From: Minisyncoccia bacterium
GTDB lineage: Bacteria > Patescibacteriota > Minisyncoccia > Phycocordibacterales > UBA5272
Assembly: GCA_038256975.1 (NCBI GenBank)
Contig: JBBSJU010000003.1
Span: 4,807-68,806, forward strand
Reading direction: 5' to 3'
Length of the DNA: 64,000 nucleotides
The position numbers and the translations under genes are program-made. Shown here one piece after another: positions 6,370 to 44,418 of this stretch. Numbering within the stretch: position 1 is the first letter of the stretch; each line of letters begins with the position of its first letter. Below the pieces are notes generated by a model. That model saw only the letters and a program-made list of their open reading frames with translations, was not told where the DNA came from and did no database searches.

Positions 6370-6913
6370 TCATCATTTTTTTGTACACCTCAAAGAGTGC
6401 TTTTGTATCAGCGAGCGCAGTGTGGGCGCGTTCGTTCTTGATACCATACATTTCACAAAGATAACGTAATGAATATTTATCGACTTCAGATTTATTATAG
6501 TGTTGCGCAAAAGCAATTGAGAGCGTATCGAGTCTTTGAAAATGTAGTGTGTTTTCTACACCGGTTGATTTAAATGCTTTATCAATAAAAGCGGCATCAA
6601 ACGTAAGGTTATGAGCAACCATAATCGCCCCTTTTGCTTTTTTTGCAAGATGTTCCATGGCATTCTTTAGGTCAATTGCAAATACCCATTCCATTTCATT
6701 AAAACCAGTAATCCGAAGGGCTTCCTCTTCTGCGTCCTGTAATCGAGTTGGCGTAACCTTGAGCTCAAATTCTTCAACAATACTTACTTCCGGACCTTTT
6801 CCAATACGTGATGTTTGCTTTGCAATAACACATCCAAGCTGGATAATTTCATGTTTCTCGGCATCGAGCCCCGTCGTTTCCACATCGATAAATGCAAGTA
6901 GTTCTGATTTCAT
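6362..6913 (-). CDS. DEDDh 3'-5' exonuclease (DnaQ/epsilon-like)
   Basis: Exo I motif FIDVETTGLD. H-x4-D motif near the C-terminus (HTALADTKAL). Confidence 0.75.
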   Translation of the reverse strand: MKSELLAFIDVETTGLDAEKHEIIQLGCVIAKQTSRIGKGPEVSIVEEFELKVTPTRLQDAEEEALRITGFNEMEWVFAIDLKNAMEHLAKKAKGAIMVAHNLTFDAAFIDKAFKSTGVENTLHFQRLDTLSIAFAQHYNKSEVDKYSLRYLCEMYGIKNERAHTALADTKALFEVYKKMMNA

Positions 6914-6936
6914 GTGTTTTGATTGTACTTACTTAT

Positions 6937-7848
6937 TTACTTGAGGTAAAGTGCTTTATTTTTCACATGCTCTTCATGTGTACGAGCATAGTACATTTCT
7001 CCGTCATCACCGGTTAAATAGAACAAGTATGGAGAGGCTTCTGGACTCAGTGCTGCAAGGAGGGAGATTTTTCCTGGATTTGAAATAGCTGTCGGTGGTA
7101 ATCCAGTATTTGTATATGTATTATACGGAGATTCTTTCGCCAAATCCGAAGTACTTAATTGAGCAGACGTCTTTCCTCGTTCATAAAAAAGTGTTGCATC
7201 TACCTGAAGCGCCATTCCAATTTTAAGTCGTTTATAGAGAATACCTGAGATAATACGCATGTCTTTTTCAGTATTTGCCTCTTTTTCTAAAATAGAAGCG
7301 ATGATAAGATTTTTTTTCTTTTCTGCTTCAGACAGCTGGGTTAAGATATTTTGTGTTTGTGTAATAAATTCTTTCTCAGCGACCGCAATAAGAGCATCTT
7401 CTGTCTCATTTCCGATAAATTCATACGTGTTCGGAAAAAGATACCCTTCCTTGCCTTGTACCTTTTCTAGAAAACGTTTGGCATCACATTGAGAAAGTTT
7501 TTGAGCACACAAGACGGCGATTTCTTTGTTTGTTGAGCCCTCAGGAATTGTTATTCGAACCGCCTTTCTATAGGTACTCTTTTCAAAAAGAAACAGGTAT
7601 TGAAAAAAACTCTTTTTTAAAGGAATATCATAAAATCCCTCTTGAACACGAACACCAAGAAGCACTCCATATTTTTCAAACAAATTTTTTGAATAGACGC
7701 ACCCAACTTCTTTTAGTTTTGTTGCCACATCATGAACAGAGTCATTTTTTTCAATCGTCAAAGTAAAAGCCTTACATGAAGGAGGTGTGGTATGTATGCA
7801 CAGTAAAATAAAAAAAATAAATCCAAAGAGAATGGGAACATTTTTCAT
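6937..7848 (-). CDS. mltG: endolytic murein transglycosylase MltG (YceG-like)
   Basis: N-terminal signal/TM. C-terminal SPYNTYTNTGLPPTAISNPG matches the YceG signature. Confidence 0.85.
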   Translation of the reverse strand: MKNVPILFGFIFFILLCIHTTPPSCKAFTLTIEKNDSVHDVATKLKEVGCVYSKNLFEKYGVLLGVRVQEGFYDIPLKKSFFQYLFLFEKSTYRKAVRITIPEGSTNKEIAVLCAQKLSQCDAKRFLEKVQGKEGYLFPNTYEFIGNETEDALIAVAEKEFITQTQNILTQLSEAEKKKNLIIASILEKEANTEKDMRIISGILYKRLKIGMALQVDATLFYERGKTSAQLSTSDLAKESPYNTYTNTGLPPTAISNPGKISLLAALSPEASPYLFYLTGDDGEMYYARTHEEHVKNKALYLK

Positions 7849-7851
7849 AAC

Positions 7852-9216
7852 CTAGAGTGGTAGATTAATAGGTGGTTCTGCTTTTGTAGATCCAATACGT
7901 TTTAGTGATGGTGCTGCTGAGACTTGTCCAGGGAAATGGTACACAGTTGCGAGTTCTTCAGTATTTAATATAAAACGAGTTGGGTCATCTTTTACTGATG
8001 GTTTCTTAAAGGCTTTTACAGGATCAACTGAAAAGAAGCGAATTTTAAAAGCTTCCCAAATATCATGAACTACACCACTCGGGATTCCATTATACCAATC
8101 TTCATTACTGTGAGCTTTGTAAAAACCTTTTCGTTTCTGAATTTTAGCGACAGCCTCATCTTTTTTTATAATAAGTTTAAGTCCTGTCGTATCTTCCCAT
8201 GGAAAATCAAAACTTGTTGTATTTTCTGGTCTAAAACCGTTATAGTTGCCATGACCAAATTGACGTAAACACCCTGTTGCTGCATCAATATTTCTTGGAT
8301 CAAAGTGTTTTTTATCAGCAATATACGCAACACGAATCATTACTTCAAAACCCGGTTTAGAAATATTATTATAAATCGCTTCAACTTTTTGTTTATCTGT
8401 ATATGAGAGATCCGAATCCTTTTTTGCTTCTGGGACATTGCCCCGAGCCTTCTCATCTGTTTTTCGTGCTTCTGCAAGTTCAGCCTTGGCTTCTTTAATT
8501 TTTTCTTTTAGCTCATCATTTGTAAGCTCAAGTCCGTAATAAATCTTGTTCAATGCTTTTTGCGCGTCTAATTTCCATGTATCAAATTTCCCATCTACCG
8601 CGCGACAAATAATCTGAAACCAAATTTGTTCGCCTTTTTTAACCGAACCCATCCATTCAATAAGTGGCGCTATCGGATCGACTTTAAACTCTTCTTTCGG
8701 ATCCTTATCGAGTTTATAATCAACATAGGTGCGAATAGGGATAGCGTCCTCCCCTACTAAGGCAAAATCATTTCCCCAAACATCGTGTTCTTTTGGATCA
8801 TAACGAAGATAATTTGTGTAGTCTTCAGCTTCTGTTATTTCTATTCCAGGATACTGTGCGTACAGCGCTGACTCTATGGCATTTTTAAACTTACTGTTTG
8901 TGCGAATAAAAAAGCGTACGTCACCTTCTATAGAGGCAATTTCCAGTGAAAACCAATTCCGAACCTTCCCATCCCAAAATTTTGCATACCACGTACTCGT
9001 TCCACCTCCTTGATGCAAAGAAGTAAGAAACATCTCCATAGCAAGGGGTGATTTAAACAAATCTCGAGGTAAGCGCACTTCAAGTAAAATCCATTTTATA
9101 GAATTGAGAAATTGCGCCTGAACGTGCCGTACCCAATGTCTCCACCAGAGTATGCCGAGTCCTGCAGAAAGTGCGATAAAGAATAATAGCGTAATGATTG
9201 CCCCAAGGTAATTCAT
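7852..9216 (-). CDS. hypothetical N-terminally membrane-anchored protein with a central Lys/Glu-rich coiled-coil
   Basis: 454-aa ORF with one N-terminal TM helix. No recognisable catalytic motif. Confidence 0.5.
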   Translation of the reverse strand: MNYLGAIITLLFFIALSAGLGILWWRHWVRHVQAQFLNSIKWILLEVRLPRDLFKSPLAMEMFLTSLHQGGGTSTWYAKFWDGKVRNWFSLEIASIEGDVRFFIRTNSKFKNAIESALYAQYPGIEITEAEDYTNYLRYDPKEHDVWGNDFALVGEDAIPIRTYVDYKLDKDPKEEFKVDPIAPLIEWMGSVKKGEQIWFQIICRAVDGKFDTWKLDAQKALNKIYYGLELTNDELKEKIKEAKAELAEARKTDEKARGNVPEAKKDSDLSYTDKQKVEAIYNNISKPGFEVMIRVAYIADKKHFDPRNIDAATGCLRQFGHGNYNGFRPENTTSFDFPWEDTTGLKLIIKKDEAVAKIQKRKGFYKAHSNEDWYNGIPSGVVHDIWEAFKIRFFSVDPVKAFKKPSVKDDPTRFILNTEELATVYHFPGQVSAAPSLKRIGSTKAEPPINLPL

Positions 9217-41086: not shown

Positions 41087-41158
41087 GGCCCTATCGTCTA
41101 GTGGTTAGGACAGCGGGTTCTCAATCCGTCAACCGGAGTTCGACTCTCCGTAGGGTCA
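41087..41158 (+). tRNA. tRNA-Glu (anticodon CTC), CCA not encoded
   Basis: Acceptor ggcccta/tagggtc. D-arm tcgtctagtggttaggaca, typical of Glu/Gln tRNAs. Anticodon loop ttCTCaa. T-arm cggag-ttcgact-ctccg. Discriminator A. Confidence 0.85.
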
Positions 41159-41171
41159 CACGTACAAAAAA

Positions 41172-41196: not shown

Positions 41197-41244
41197 GTGT
41201 GACCCTAAGCAAGCAAACTGCTTTGCTTGCGTCGGAGAGTCGAA
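41197..41244 (-). repeat. inverted partial copy of the tRNA-Glu 3' end (T-loop through acceptor 3' strand, 22 nt) split by a 25-nt hairpin insert
   Basis: The reverse complement of 41197..41244 is ttcgactctccg + acgcaagcaaagcagtttgcttgct + tagggtcaca. The tRNA 3' end at 41139..41160 is ttcgactctccgtagggtcaca. Confidence 0.6.
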
Positions 41245-41355
41245 AAGCTTTTCCATGTTTTGAGAATCTTTGATACGATAAAACAGGAAAAGGTGTACTG
41301 CGACTGTAGGTCGAGACTCTCGTTTAATCACCATCAACAGCTAGCACCAGTAGCG

Positions 41356-41388
41356 TACAAAAACCTCCTATTTGGAGGTTTTTGTACT
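41356..41388. repeat. perfect 14-bp-stem palindrome gtacaaaaacctcc-tattt-ggaggtttttgtac upstream of gene A
   Basis: Direct inspection. Could act as a bidirectional terminator or operator. Confidence 0.55.
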
Positions 41389-41392
41389 TGTG

Positions 41393-41424
41393 AAAAAAAA
41401 TTGAAAAAGTTATATAATCTTTTT
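41393..41424 (+). promoter_or_regulatory. AT-rich promoter-like region with TATAAT hexamer ending 8 nt before the ATG of gene A (near-leaderless)
   Basis: ttgaaaaagttatataatctttttATG. A -35-like ttgtga/ttgaaa lies upstream. Confidence 0.3.
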
Positions 41425-42318
41425 ATGAAAACCATGTTTACAGACAAATTTCCCGACGACATGAAATCTAACACGGAGCTCGAAGCAGTAAAAATTAAAT
41501 ACCCTAATTATGACGACTATTACGTTGCGAGCGGATCGATAAAAGAACGTAGAGAGAGGTTCGATGAAATGTATCAAATATATGCTCCATATGCGGATAG
41601 ACATTTTCTATCAGATCTCAAAAAGCAATTTCATCAACGAACGTGGGAGATGTATATTGGATATGTTCTTGTAAAAAACAGTGTTATTTTCACCTCGACC
41701 GACAAAGGCCCAGATTTTCTTATAGAAACTCCTGGCGGAAAGATTTGGATTGAAGCAGTTGCGTGTGGTCCAGGAGAAGGACCAGATCGAGTTCCTGCAA
41801 TGGTGTATGGTGGAGTAAGTAACGTCCCTCAGGAAGAAATGATCATACGTATAGTTAGTAGTCTTGATTCAAAGTATAAAAAATTTAAAAAATACCTAGC
41901 TGACGGTATTGTGTCTCCGGAAGATAAATTGATAATTGCCGTAAACGCAGGCGGATTTTCACACATTGTTGACGGAGATATGCCACTTATTTTAAAGGCA
42001 ATTTTTGCCATTGGCCACAAAACACTGTCATGGCCTATAAATTCTGATCATAGTGTTCCTGGAAAATCAGGTGTTTCGACCAGAAATTTTATCGAGAAAA
42101 GAAATGGGAGTAAGGTGCCGACAACTTTTTTTCTTGAAGAAGACCATAAAATAATCAGTGCCATAATGTATTGCAGTAAAAACATACTGAATCATGAAAA
42201 TCCCCCTGGGATAGATATTTCAGTTGTGAGAAACTACATCGCTACCAATTCACTCCCAGAAACTGAGTTTCCGTTTATGGATTATATTAGTACAAAAAAC
42301 GGAGAAATTCTAATATAG
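41425..42318 (+). CDS. hypothetical protein (islet gene A), possible PD-(D/E)xK-like nuclease fold
   Basis: 297 aa from ATG 41425 (MKTMFTDKF...). The track ORF starts at 41227 but would span the palindrome and tRNA fragment. GPDFLIETPGGKIWIEAVA is weakly reminiscent of a D...ExK motif. No confident family. Confidence 0.5.
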   Translation: MKTMFTDKFPDDMKSNTELEAVKIKYPNYDDYYVASGSIKERRERFDEMYQIYAPYADRHFLSDLKKQFHQRTWEMYIGYVLVKNSVIFTSTDKGPDFLIETPGGKIWIEAVACGPGEGPDRVPAMVYGGVSNVPQEEMIIRIVSSLDSKYKKFKKYLADGIVSPEDKLIIAVNAGGFSHIVDGDMPLILKAIFAIGHKTLSWPINSDHSVPGKSGVSTRNFIEKRNGSKVPTTFFLEEDHKIISAIMYCSKNILNHENPPGIDISVVRNYIATNSLPETEFPFMDYISTKNGEILI

Positions 42319-42322
42319 TACA

Positions 42323-43450
42323 TTATTGAGGTTGCTTATCTTTCAAAAAGTTTAATAGGCAGTGACGAACAAGCGATTCAAAGAAATGGGCGAATGGTAA
42401 TTTTTGCGAACCAGAAAATGATCTATTGTCGATAGTCATACCCATACTTGGATCGGTATCCCAAGTCCTAGCCTCTTTCATTCTTAGTGGCATACTCAAG
42501 TACATTGATTCGCCACTATGGAGATACGCAGATCTGGCACTATATATGGTTTTTAGTGTCGGAACTAAGGCATCTTTTCTTATTTTACAATGTTCGGCTC
42601 TAGATTTTCCGCCTTTAAAAAATCTTGTGCAATATTTTTTAATAAAGGAAACAAAACGTAACTTAGAATTCCTGACAGAAAAAATCTCCTTCAATTTATC
42701 CTGTTGTTCTTTTGACAAACTAGTGACATCCACGATTTCGTGTATTTCCCTTGCACTAAAAATATCCACTGAAGAATCCATATCTATATACTTACTTAAA
42801 ATTTCTACGGCCGAAACAAGTCGAATGAATACCATTTCGGTGTCTAGACTAACTTGTCTCAAGGATTGTAAATATTGAAATGATGCCCATAAGAAATCTT
42901 GATGGAACTCCGTGGGTAGAGATCTGATCTTGTCTAAAAATTCAACAAGCCCAACACTAAAACTACGGGTCTTGTCTGAAAAAATAGTCGGATGAATCCC
43001 ACCTTCTGTACGCCTGTATTTTAAATATCTTTCGGATCGATGTTTTTGTCCATTTGAAAAAATGGTACTAGTCGCAACGATATAAAATCTGCATTGAAAA
43101 TATAAAGAGAATAAAGATATAAATTCTTCTGCCACCCCCTCCTTAAAATAGTAACCGCTTTTGTGGACATCTAGGTAACGCGAGTCGTTCTGTTCTCCAT
43201 GTGTGGCAGACTTTATTCGGAGAAGATATTTATATAAACCATTTTCATCTTTTTCAAAAGTTAAAAATGAACATGAAATTAACCCTTTCTCGTAATCAAG
43301 CCCGCCGGTTATACGGCATTCAGTGGCAATTTCATATTCTTCAAAATACTGATCTTTCTTTTTTCTAAATTTAACACAGTCAATATGCCTGACCCAGGAC
43401 ATTCTATTGTCTAGTTTTCTTCTGACTATGGACATATCTAAATAGTACAC
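42323..43450 (-). CDS. hypothetical protein (islet gene B) with C-terminal Rx4H HEPN-like motif; candidate abortive-infection/defence RNase
   Basis: 375 aa. C-terminal TIYSARSAYLHSGE matches the R-x4-H HEPN motif. Convergent with gene A, stops 4 nt apart. Confidence 0.45.
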   Translation of the reverse strand: MYYLDMSIVRRKLDNRMSWVRHIDCVKFRKKKDQYFEEYEIATECRITGGLDYEKGLISCSFLTFEKDENGLYKYLLRIKSATHGEQNDSRYLDVHKSGYYFKEGVAEEFISLFSLYFQCRFYIVATSTIFSNGQKHRSERYLKYRRTEGGIHPTIFSDKTRSFSVGLVEFLDKIRSLPTEFHQDFLWASFQYLQSLRQVSLDTEMVFIRLVSAVEILSKYIDMDSSVDIFSAREIHEIVDVTSLSKEQQDKLKEIFSVRNSKLRFVSFIKKYCTRFFKGGKSRAEHCKIRKDALVPTLKTIYSARSAYLHSGESMYLSMPLRMKEARTWDTDPSMGMTIDNRSFSGSQKLPFAHFFESLVRHCLLNFLKDKQPQ

Positions 43451-43508: not shown

Positions 43509-43582
43509 CAAATAAAAAACCCACCAAATTTGGTGAGCATTCTTGGTCTAAGGTGACATGGAGTCACCTTAGACCACTTTTT
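43509..43582 (-). terminator. tandem-hairpin terminator downstream of islet gene C
   Basis: 13-bp perfect stem ggtctaaggtgac-atgga-gtcaccttagacc. Second hairpin caccaaatttggtg. On the minus strand a gggttttttatttggg T-run follows. Confidence 0.55.
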
Positions 43583-43590
43583 CGGCAAGC

Positions 43591-44181
43591 CTAGCGCTTA
43601 CCCTTCTTGCCGCTGCCTGCACTCGCACCTTTACGAGCCTGGCATTCGCCATTCCTAGCAGCATGGTTCGCCCAGCGACGACTCTCGACACCGGCTGCTT
43701 TTGCACGGGCGGTTTTGCCCGTCGAGGCGCGTTGTTTCAGCTTGAGCCAGGCGGGAACGTCCATACTTCGCGGCAGAGACTTCGGCTGGAGGTCGTTGAA
43801 ATAAACCGACCAGCCATTTTTGTTCTCGAACGTACAGTTGACCAGCTCCTGTTCCGGACTACCGAAGAATCGGTAGGAGAACGCTCCGGGTTGCAAAAGC
43901 ATATTTTCGATGCCGGCAGCGGCAACCATCTTACTTGCTTTCGCGAGCAGCCAGGTTGCCCCGATTGCCCGGATGTCGGAGACCTTGAGGAGAAAAGCGT
44001 TCCCCTTGCCGGTAAACTCACGACCCGTGTCGTGAGCAAAAGTTGCGTTCACGAGGAATGACCCTGATGACTGAATGATTCCCCGATCATTCAGTCGCAC
44101 CAGAGTCATTCGAGGATCGTTGACCAGATCATCGAATGAGATCCATGTGCTATGCTTTGTCACAACGTTCATGTTGTTCAT
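43591..44181 (-). CDS. hypothetical protein (islet gene C), 54% GC, with Lys/Arg/Ala-rich basic C-terminal tail
   Basis: Start at ATG 44181, preceded by strong SD AGGAGA with a 5-nt spacer (MNNMNVVTKH...). The track ORF extends to 44220. GC is ~17 points above the genome background. The C-terminal 45 aa are highly basic (KQRASTGKTARAKAAG...KGASAGSGKKGKR). Confidence 0.5.
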   Translation of the reverse strand: MNNMNVVTKHSTWISFDDLVNDPRMTLVRLNDRGIIQSSGSFLVNATFAHDTGREFTGKGNAFLLKVSDIRAIGATWLLAKASKMVAAAGIENMLLQPGAFSYRFFGSPEQELVNCTFENKNGWSVYFNDLQPKSLPRSMDVPAWLKLKQRASTGKTARAKAAGVESRRWANHAARNGECQARKGASAGSGKKGKR

Positions 44182-44376
44182 GGTTGTCTCCTGATAGCTC
44201 CATCGAACCCTTATCCCCATGAAGGAAAGGTGGAGGGGTCCTTGACCCAGATTGGAAGTTTAGTCCGACCGTTCGAAAGTCTTTATGGACAAACTTGGGA
44301 AATATTTCCCGAAAAATATCTAAATAATTAGTTTTTAGGTTCTTTTCAGGAAACATTTCCTTTCAAAGATCAGGCT

Positions 44377-44418
44377 GTATACTAATACCAGTATACTATA
44401 TATACATAATTTTGTCAA
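44377..44418 (-). promoter_or_regulatory. consensus sigma70 promoter TTGACA-17-TATACT with palindromic operator overlapping the -10/TSS, driving islet gene C
   Basis: Minus strand reads ttgacaaaattatgtatatatagtatactggtattagtatac. The palindrome gtatact-aatacc-agtatac (44377..44396) overlaps the -10 box. A ~200-nt 5' UTR follows. Confidence 0.5.

Follow-up and report, generated by a model that had tools for sequence, protein, structure and literature searches.

Gene C and its expression unit

We analysed a stretch of 64,000 nucleotides (64 kb; hereafter the window) from contig JBBSJU010000003.1 (positions 4,807 to 68,806, forward strand) of the Minisyncoccia bacterium assembly GCA_038256975.1, and concentrated on a gene of its minus strand, gene C, together with the RNA leader that precedes it. 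Gene C lies in a compact block of about 910 bp (44418..43509, minus), here called the cassette, which comprises in the order of transcription a promoter, a structured 5' leader, the coding sequence (CDS), a hairpin past the stop codon and an intrinsic terminator. We hold with moderate confidence that this cassette is under post-transcriptional control by a new structured cis-regulatory leader. Other loci are designated by L numbers, and the groups into which those with homologues fall are given below. The principal features of the cassette are the following:

44413..44418, minus: -35 hexamer TTGACA, invariant in 9 of 9 distinct loci with a long leader; the homology with L002 starts here
44390..44395, minus: -10 hexamer TATACT, at a 17-nt spacing from the -35 hexamer; TATACT in 8 of the 9 distinct loci and TATAGT in L002
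44377..44396, minus: inverted repeat GTATACT-GGTATT-AGTATAC (7-6-7), a proposed operator; arms invariant and spacer variable in three loci linked to murF
44182..44383, minus: structured leader RNA at the 5' end, with a length of about 202 nt for a transcription start site (TSS) some 7 nt after the -10 hexamer; minimum free energy (MFE) z-score of -3.25 relative to shuffled sequence
44187..44192, minus: Shine-Dalgarno (SD) sequence AGGAGA, 5 nt ahead of the ATG; GGGAGA in the distant group
44181 (ATG) to 43591 (stop), minus: CDS of gene C, 196 aa, with a core of about residues 12-150, a long helix and a basic Gly/Lys tail
43544..43576, minus: hairpin of 13-14 bp directly past the stop codon, its pairing kept by 3 compensatory changes between the window, L001 and L002
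43509..43538, minus: intrinsic terminator (8-bp stem and T-run) at the end of the cassette; the L002 homology ends about 10 nt after the T-run

The initial annotation of this stretch, made from the letters alone, had singled out gene C as a foreign gene of about 54% G+C in a genome of about 37%. The first value holds (G+C of 0.547, and of 0.619 at third codon positions, GC3), while the background is nearer 40%, with the 42 other long open reading frames (ORFs) of the window averaging 0.398 and 0.312. Measured against these ORFs, gene C deviates by z = 5.9 in G+C and z = 10.0 in GC3, which is beyond chance and marks it as compositionally foreign. Its strong SD sequence is likewise as unusual as had been stated: an SD core of at least 4 nt precedes just 9 of the 43 long ORFs, and 34 have none. 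The basic C-terminal tail is present too, with a measured length of 47 residues in place of the 45 first given; it contains 6 K, 7 R, 11 A and 7 G and has an isoelectric point (pI) of 11.9, that of the whole protein being 10.2. This composition, in keeping with the likeness to nucleic-acid-binding tails that had been pointed out, suggests that the basic product is probably a non-enzymatic nucleic-acid-binding protein.

An N-terminal extension of the protein from an ATG at 44220 was considered and rejected: the frame has a stop in L009, and the surrounding 46 nt are invariant as nucleotides, which fits a constraint on RNA and not on coding. Every locus also has long ORFs (132-243 aa) antisense to the GC-rich CDS (for example 43663-44061 on the plus strand of the window and 4480-5211 in L009), and these are probably a by-product of the high G+C content.

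A rare protein family in three groups

Among 5.8 billion proteins, a word-indexed search found just the gene C product itself and two others (88% and 80% identical), and an exhaustive search of 1.84 billion cluster representatives with a hidden Markov model added just three further remote matches. Profile searches raise the family to about a dozen proteins in three groups: the W-group (window, L001, L034 and L002), the P0004 group (L003 to L005) and the distant P0006 group (L006 to L010, L033, L035 and L036), whose members are 22-30% identical to gene C. Relatives were not found in JGI metagenome contigs (by a protein scan and a three-block leader pattern), in IMG/VR (by a protein scan and two leader 21-22-mers), or in INPHARED phages and PLSDB plasmids (by tblastn). 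By these searches the gene C family is extremely rare.

Database searches of the kind that had been proposed for gene C thus yield homologues in small number and match none of the known families. There was no hit in Pfam, PHROG, PADLOC or NCBIfam, and none in sequence and profile searches of the PDB. An AlphaFold2 (AF2) model derived from 8 sequences was usable, with a predicted local distance difference test (pLDDT) score of 76.7, while that from 3 sequences was not (pLDDT 44); Foldseek comparisons of the former with the PDB and BFVD gave insignificant matches only. The invariant residues of the family are chiefly hydrophobic, Gly, Pro, Trp or basic, the conserved motifs include LPxGMxVPxW and GKTAR, and no catalytic residue set was found among the invariant positions of the family alignments. 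For the putative toxin role suggested earlier, the sequence and fold searches yielded no catalytic signature and no known fold by which to judge it.

Identity at codon positions 1 and 2 is 86-93%, compared with 56-71% at position 3. These patterns of substitution show gene C to be a real gene under purifying selection, without a known family or fold. In a giant protein of 4741 aa (P0005), whose Pfam matches are uninformative, 11 stretches correspond to the segment 91-138 of the gene C profile (E 3e-11); the two proteins may have a repeated beta-rich unit in common, which in gene C would lie in the core.

A structured leader conserved by compensatory changes

From the -10 hexamer to the ATG the leader region spans 208 nt, in agreement with the 5' untranslated region (UTR) of about 200 nt that had been read from the sequence. 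Leader identity in the W-group is 94% and 88.5%, as against only 71% and 56% at the third codon positions of the gene, and its substitutions do not follow a periodicity of three, nor is any reading frame open in all sequences. The comparison shows the leader to be under stronger constraint than synonymous sites. An upstream ORF within it (MFPEKNLK..., 33-36 codons), which would start with ATG, GTG or, in L034, AUA, was rejected as a coding element: it has no counterpart in the distant group, and most of its changes (6 of 8) alter the amino acid. The P0006 group has the same cTTGACA-17-TATACT promoter followed by a 260-275-nt leader of the same layout. The elements of this layout, with their positions in the window, are:

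44365..44374, minus: 5' box CCUGAUCUUU; UGAUCYUU in all leaders, invariant in alignments A5 and A7
44298..44360, minus: P1, a 19-bp hairpin with an apical extension; arms 44360..44342 and 44316..44298
44256..44296, minus: P2 hairpin, a three-way domain in the P0006 group; compensatory pairs in the W-group, base helix covarying across groups
44236..44248, minus: P3, a short G+C hairpin GGGUC-AAG-GACCC, whose helix covaries in the cross-group alignment
44198..44235, minus: P4, an outer helix CUCCA/UGGAG around a hairpin with a conserved UCAUG loop; covarying helices

RNAalifold applied to three W-group sequences detected three compensatory pairs, and the inclusion of the distant group extended this pattern over P1 to P4. 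The P1 helix has the consensus AGGARRURUUUCC ... GGARAYAYYUCC, and among nine sequences 98.2% of its cells are paired, with two-sided changes at 6 of the 19 pairs (21 cells). The observed pairing was never equalled in 500 shuffles, and slid controls gave 39-69%. The outer helix of P4 has been re-formed from different sequences in the distant loci, as CUAUCUG/CAGAUAG in L006, CUAUUUG/CAAAUAG in L007 and CUGCUAG/CUAGCAG in L009; helices 6 and 7 of P4 are 95-100% paired and 8 of their 14 pairs have changed on both sides. For the 3' half of the leader, in an alignment guided by a covariance model, pairing extends to 93.7% of cells, and two-sided changes are seen at 23 of 40 pairs; here too no shuffle out of 500 attained the observed pairing, and slid controls gave 38-57%. 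The helices P1 to P4 have been kept by compensatory changes even upstream of homologues that are only 22-30% identical, and these comparisons of sequences show them to be conserved as paired elements.

Two other explanations for parts of this conservation were tried and set aside. The arms of P1 might be read as two palindromic DNA operators (GGAAATGTTTCC and GGGAAATATTTCCC); these arms lose their self-complementarity in the distant group, and since they stay complementary to each other there, the constraint on P1 is that expected of an RNA hairpin. An alternative CUCC:GGAG switch within P4 is specific to the W-group. The leader contains no tandem repeats and no internal terminator.

In Rfam the leader has no family: its matches score 21-24 bits, as expected of chance hits to miRNA-type models, and the thresholds lie at 55-90. 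Only two tRNAs in the whole window reach the gathering score, and the distant leaders are likewise without a family. Judged by these searches and those reported above for the protein, the leader RNA and the gene C product both belong to undescribed families. A pattern search for P1 in GTDB genomes gave 22 matches, all of them unrelated GGAAAYRTTTCC palindromes. Such palindromes make up a 530-bp tandem array with 21/42-nt units, met through one of these chance matches (L032 5694-6250 and L011 about 6800-7100; Acidobacteriota metagenome-assembled genome JAUPLE01); it has Tandem Repeats Finder (TRF) scores of 416-748 and is unrelated to the cassette.

The promoter and its palindrome

The promoter TTGACA-17-TATACT (44418..44390, minus) scores 11/12 and is one of two sites with a score of at least 11/12 on both strands of the 64 kb, and the sole one among them with a perfect -35 hexamer. 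Its spacing is 17 nt in all 9 distinct homologous loci though the sequence of the spacer varies. Its earlier description as the best promoter of the window can thus be retained, and with hexamers and spacing kept in 9 distinct loci it is beyond chance. Transcription of gene C is probably strong and constitutive.

The initial annotation had also proposed tight repression through a palindromic operator over the -10 hexamer and TSS; in such a model a dimeric repressor would bind GTATACT-N6-AGTATAC and keep a toxic or phage-like gene silent. The 7-6-7 palindrome does exist at this site, its arms are invariant in the three murF-linked loci while the 6-nt spacers differ (GGTATT, AGTGCT and GGCGTT), and an AGTATA or GTATA partner of the -10 hexamer is found in the promoter spacer of 4 of the 5 distinct distant-group promoters. 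However, the window holds 119 perfect inverted repeats with arms of at least 7 nt and a spacer of at most 10 nt (1.9 per kb; 54 +/- 7 in shuffles), and because of this density any 30-nt stretch has about a 5% chance of containing one. The repeat is therefore not beyond chance, and the operator reading is weakened by the frequency of such repeats in the background. Moreover, the palindrome does not persist in all loci with the gene: it is degraded in L002, where only 4 of the 7 arm positions retain the inverted symmetry, the -10 hexamers of L033 and L035 have no palindromic partner at all, and the partner in L006 to L009 lies upstream of the -10 hexamer, inside the promoter spacer and thus on its other side. 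Neither a second copy of the site in the 64-kb window nor a regulator gene travelling with the cassette at the window, L001 or L002 loci was found.

The left arm coincides with the -10 hexamer and the right arm with the predicted 5' end of the RNA, that is, the first bases of the conserved leader; the 6-nt spacer would be an untranscribed discriminator if the TSS lies about 7 nt after the -10 hexamer. The combination of invariant arms and variable spacer fits an operator, and is equally well explained by the -10 hexamer and the RNA 5' end on either side of an unconstrained discriminator, with no repressor involved. We accordingly regard repression through this site as very improbable and the palindrome as most likely a by-product of the two elements that it overlaps. 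Judged by conservation, it is the leader and not the promoter palindrome that is the putative conserved control element of gene C.

Mobility of the cassette and age of its composition

The limits of the cassette are sharply drawn by comparison of the window with L002, in which identity is 28% ahead of the -35 hexamer, reaches 76% over the promoter and 88.5% over the leader, and then declines to 77% over the CDS, 68% over the 3' UTR and 29% beyond the terminator T-run; the similarity begins at the -35 hexamer itself and ends about 10 nt past the T-run. In L001 and L034 the cassette follows murF, as it does in the window, and in L002, from a different genome, it lies between two unrelated genes. 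The occurrence of the same promoter-to-terminator block at murF in three related genomes and elsewhere in L002 agrees with the notion of a mobile unit, and these alignments show that the cassette moves as a unit between genomic contexts. No neighbours are shared between the W-group and other loci.

That the transfer was recent, as had been supposed from the deviant composition, is not supported by the homologues. Identity at third positions between the window and L034 is 0.837 for gene C and 0.782 for murF, and given these similar values the two genes have co-diverged, each to about the same extent. In the same comparison the GC3 of gene C stays at 0.62 and that of murF at 0.36-0.39; since the high GC3 has persisted during this co-divergence, the transfer was not recent. 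Furthermore, high G+C is typical of the family: every homologue has a GC3 of 0.61-0.84, with neighbouring genes at 0.21-0.55 and AT-rich promoters and leaders of its own. These comparisons across the family show the high GC3 to be a stable, maintained trait. If this is true, gene C would be a counter-example to the equation of deviant G+C with recent transfer, having kept a GC3 of 0.6-0.8 in hosts of 0.2-0.4, for which selection on mRNA structure, codon-limited expression and avoidance of nucleases are candidate explanations.

A model of post-transcriptional control

We propose to read the locus as a 'moron'-like cassette, mobile and autonomous, in which a sigma-70 promoter, a leader of about 200 nt, the gene, the 3' hairpin and a terminator would form a self-sufficient unit, with expression gated after transcription. 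In this model the leader would close upon itself, the UGAUC box pairing with the SD region and limiting ribosome access. Consistent with this, the SD sequence is paired in the MFE fold of 9 of 9 leaders, with a probability of being unpaired of 0.03-0.41, and the 5' box is paired with AUCAGG (44196..44191) in consensus and MFE folds. The most economical trans-factor would be the gene C protein itself, which would then exert negative translational autoregulation of the type known for ribosomal proteins and for T4 RegA and gp32; the protein is the likeliest such factor because leader and protein have co-evolved over deep divergence. We offer this autoregulatory step only tentatively and consider it doubtful. 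The P1 duplex, of 19-24 bp, could also be a site for RNase III.

Several points weigh against control by the leader as proposed here. The evidence for covariation comes from 9 distinct leader sequences in two tight clusters, and the alignment of the 3' half was fitted to the covariance model. A covariance model of the distant-group leaders recovers those of the W-group at their true position, though weakly (E 0.15-1.2), and does not detect the leader of the window at E <= 10. The SD-closing helix is formed in one register in the W-group and in another in the distant group, contains a mismatch in L001 and lacks clean covariation, and for these reasons it is to be read as a fold prediction. The P0004 branch (L003-L005) has a consensus promoter and a leader of about 70 nt without P1-P4, from which it follows that the long leader is not obligatory for the protein. 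The RNA 5' end, and with it the status of the palindrome, follows from a presumed TSS, and binding of the leader by the protein is predicted.

If control by the leader holds, this RNA would constitute a new structured motif of 200-270 nt with at least four covarying helices, absent from Rfam and associated with a single orphan protein family. It would equally bring to light a new family of small proteins without detectable relatives in sequence or fold, whose compact expression unit moves between distantly related uncultured bacteria.

A second explanation would make the leader a functional non-coding RNA partner of the protein, processed from the 5' part of the transcript and residing with the protein in a ribonucleoprotein, whether as guide, scaffold, sensor or RNA antitoxin. 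The loci of the distant group bear on this. There the gene is transcribed divergently from a conserved operon, which encodes two proteins (about 195 and 240 aa) along with a GHKL ATPase (about 560 aa; HATPase_c_3 domain, weak PADLOC matches of the TmtA type). The operon proteins of L006 (1-3138) and L009 (2-4222) are 53%, 47% and 71% identical, and together they may make up an uncharacterised multi-gene system. Downstream of the homologue by 200-290 nt there is a candidate type III hammerhead ribozyme (RF00008) on the plus strand of L009 (5627-5681), L008 (1276-1330) and L033 (1440-1494). It scores below the gathering value of 48.5 bits, with 44.6 in L008 and 35.8 in both L009 and L033 (E 6e-7 to 2e-4), and has an intact CUGANGA/GAAA core and intact stems. 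Next come a 63-aa ORF and a 509-aa kinase-like ORF. No hammerhead was found with Rfam in the cassette of the window.

An RNA-protein partnership is favoured by the co-occurrence and co-evolution of the two across 22-30% protein identity, by a P1 long enough for processing by RNase III, by the conserved locus shared with the GHKL ATPase and two other genes, by the RNA-processing context that the candidate hammerhead would provide and by the conserved hairpin past the stop codon. Against it, the boundary between leader and CDS carries no terminator or processing signal, and the leader ends in an SD sequence, the typical layout of a cis-regulator. There are also no tandem repeats and no variable guide segment, the variable parts lying in helices and loops, and the P0004 branch does without the RNA. 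On this evidence we think a ribonucleoprotein of this kind unlikely. The fuller version of the idea, in which leader RNA and protein form a module that in the distant group would include the GHKL ATPase, the two other proteins and a hammerhead-processed transcript, seems to us decidedly unlikely; such a module might, for instance, regulate a defence or mobile-element function by sensing RNA or by RNA guidance, and the copy in the window would then be its minimal, solitary version. The position of the distant relatives beside the GHKL-ATPase operon and the candidate hammerhead makes the family a reasonable candidate for the RNA biology of defence or mobile elements. A hairpin with tail, GCGCAGUAUCGUCUGCGCCUGACAAAUUAAAACG, is nearly invariant about 60-150 nt past the stop codon of the homologue in L006-L009, L033, L035 and L036, within some 440 nt of structured spacer that extend to the next ORF.

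A riboswitch or another sensor of a small molecule, an ion or temperature, which would open the helix that closes the SD sequence, would account for the multi-helix layout, in which unpaired sequence has been conserved at the UGAUCYUU box, in the UCAUG loop and at the junctions, and for the predicted sequestration of the SD sequence; the RNA, not being in Rfam, would then be an orphan class. As a rule, however, riboswitches act on genes of metabolism or transport, and frequently on several that are unrelated; in our searches this RNA accompanied a single orphan protein family, carried on a mobile cassette. P2 also differs greatly in size between the groups, and we give this explanation little credence. 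It is equally improbable that leader and 3' hairpin just stabilise or process the message with no switch involved, their stem-loops and RNase III sites protecting a foreign GC-rich transcript in an AT-rich host. The stable hairpins with compensatory changes at both transcript ends and a consensus-strength promoter suggestive of high constitutive expression would allow this; for stabilisation, however, a 5'-terminal hairpin alone would suffice, and here at least four helices, conserved single-stranded boxes and the predicted SD pairing are kept over deep divergence.

Comparison with known systems

Translational control by a leader of this kind would find its closest parallels in autoregulatory leaders such as those of ribosomal-protein mRNAs, T4 RegA and gp32, the MS2 coat operator and thrS. 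Like these, gene C has a structured 5' UTR that ends at the SD sequence and start codon, RNA and protein that co-evolve and a basic product, and its UCAUG loop resembles the YCAUGA context of the start. In contrast to most such operators the leader is larger, with at least four helices in 200-270 nt, and the protein belongs to no known family.

Leaders from which RNase III processing unmasks the SD sequence are those of E. coli adhE and of lambda and T7 early mRNAs. The near-perfect P1 duplex (19-24 bp), located between the 5' anti-SD segment and the SD sequence, would be comparable if it were cleaved in the same way.

As a unit of mobility the cassette resembles morons in being self-contained from promoter to terminator, in its deviant G+C content and in its unrelated flanking genes. 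It differs from them in that it is not in a recognisable prophage and has no relative in IMG/VR, INPHARED or PLSDB, in its long structured leader, and in a composition that was kept during co-divergence with murF.

Type III toxin-antitoxin systems (ToxIN, CptIN and TenpIN) share with gene C a strong promoter, a structured RNA, a basic protein of about 170-200 aa, mobility and a defence-island context. Unlike in these systems, the leader has neither a tandem array of 34-45-nt units nor a terminator between RNA and gene. An assignment to this class was rejected, there being no match in PADLOC, Pfam or PDB sequence searches and no ToxN, AbiQ or CptN among the 50 Foldseek matches listed.

VIPR consists of the Vipr RAMP-like (repeat-associated mysterious protein) protein and a vrRNA of 9-16 YNNGG repeats in the flanking intergenic DNA (bioRxiv 10.64898/2026.04.26.720920). 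Gene C recalls it in being a small protein flanked by long non-coding stretches, in its Gly-rich C-terminus, in the candidate hammerhead near its distant relatives, and in its occurrence in defence islands and in genomes resembling those of the candidate phyla radiation (CPR). This identification, too, was rejected. No run with GG in at least 7 of 9 period-5 units was present in the window or in 11 loci: the best runs near gene C reach 3-6/8, with 3-5/8 in shuffles of the L009 region, and the runs of 5-6/8 lie in G+C-rich stretches. The order of elements in the AF2 model is not beta-alpha-beta-beta-alpha-beta, no RAMP, and thus no Cas5, Cas6 or Cas7, is among the Foldseek matches listed, and there is no match in INPHARED.

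Genomic context in the window

The surroundings of the cassette on the side of its terminator include the following features:

41087..41159: tRNA-Glu(CUC)
41227-42318, plus: ORF of 363 aa beside the tRNA-Glu gene, matching PADLOC PD-T7-1 (2e-14), PADLOC PD-T7-5 (6e-13) and phrog_8571 (6e-24)
42323-43450, minus: ORF of 375 aa without a family match, between the 363-aa ORF and gene C

Beyond gene C there is murF and then a penicillin-binding-protein gene. Phage genes adjoining gene C were not found in Pfam and PHROG searches. As far as these annotations indicate, gene C is located at the murF edge of a small variable island of the defence type between tRNA-Glu and murF. Most genes of the window are without an SD sequence, and several have a TATAAT-like sequence directly before the start codon (for example at 9216 and 36322), which suggests mRNAs with short leaders or none in this organism. 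Gene C and the 375-aa ORF (GGGAGGGGGA) are exceptions in having an SD sequence.

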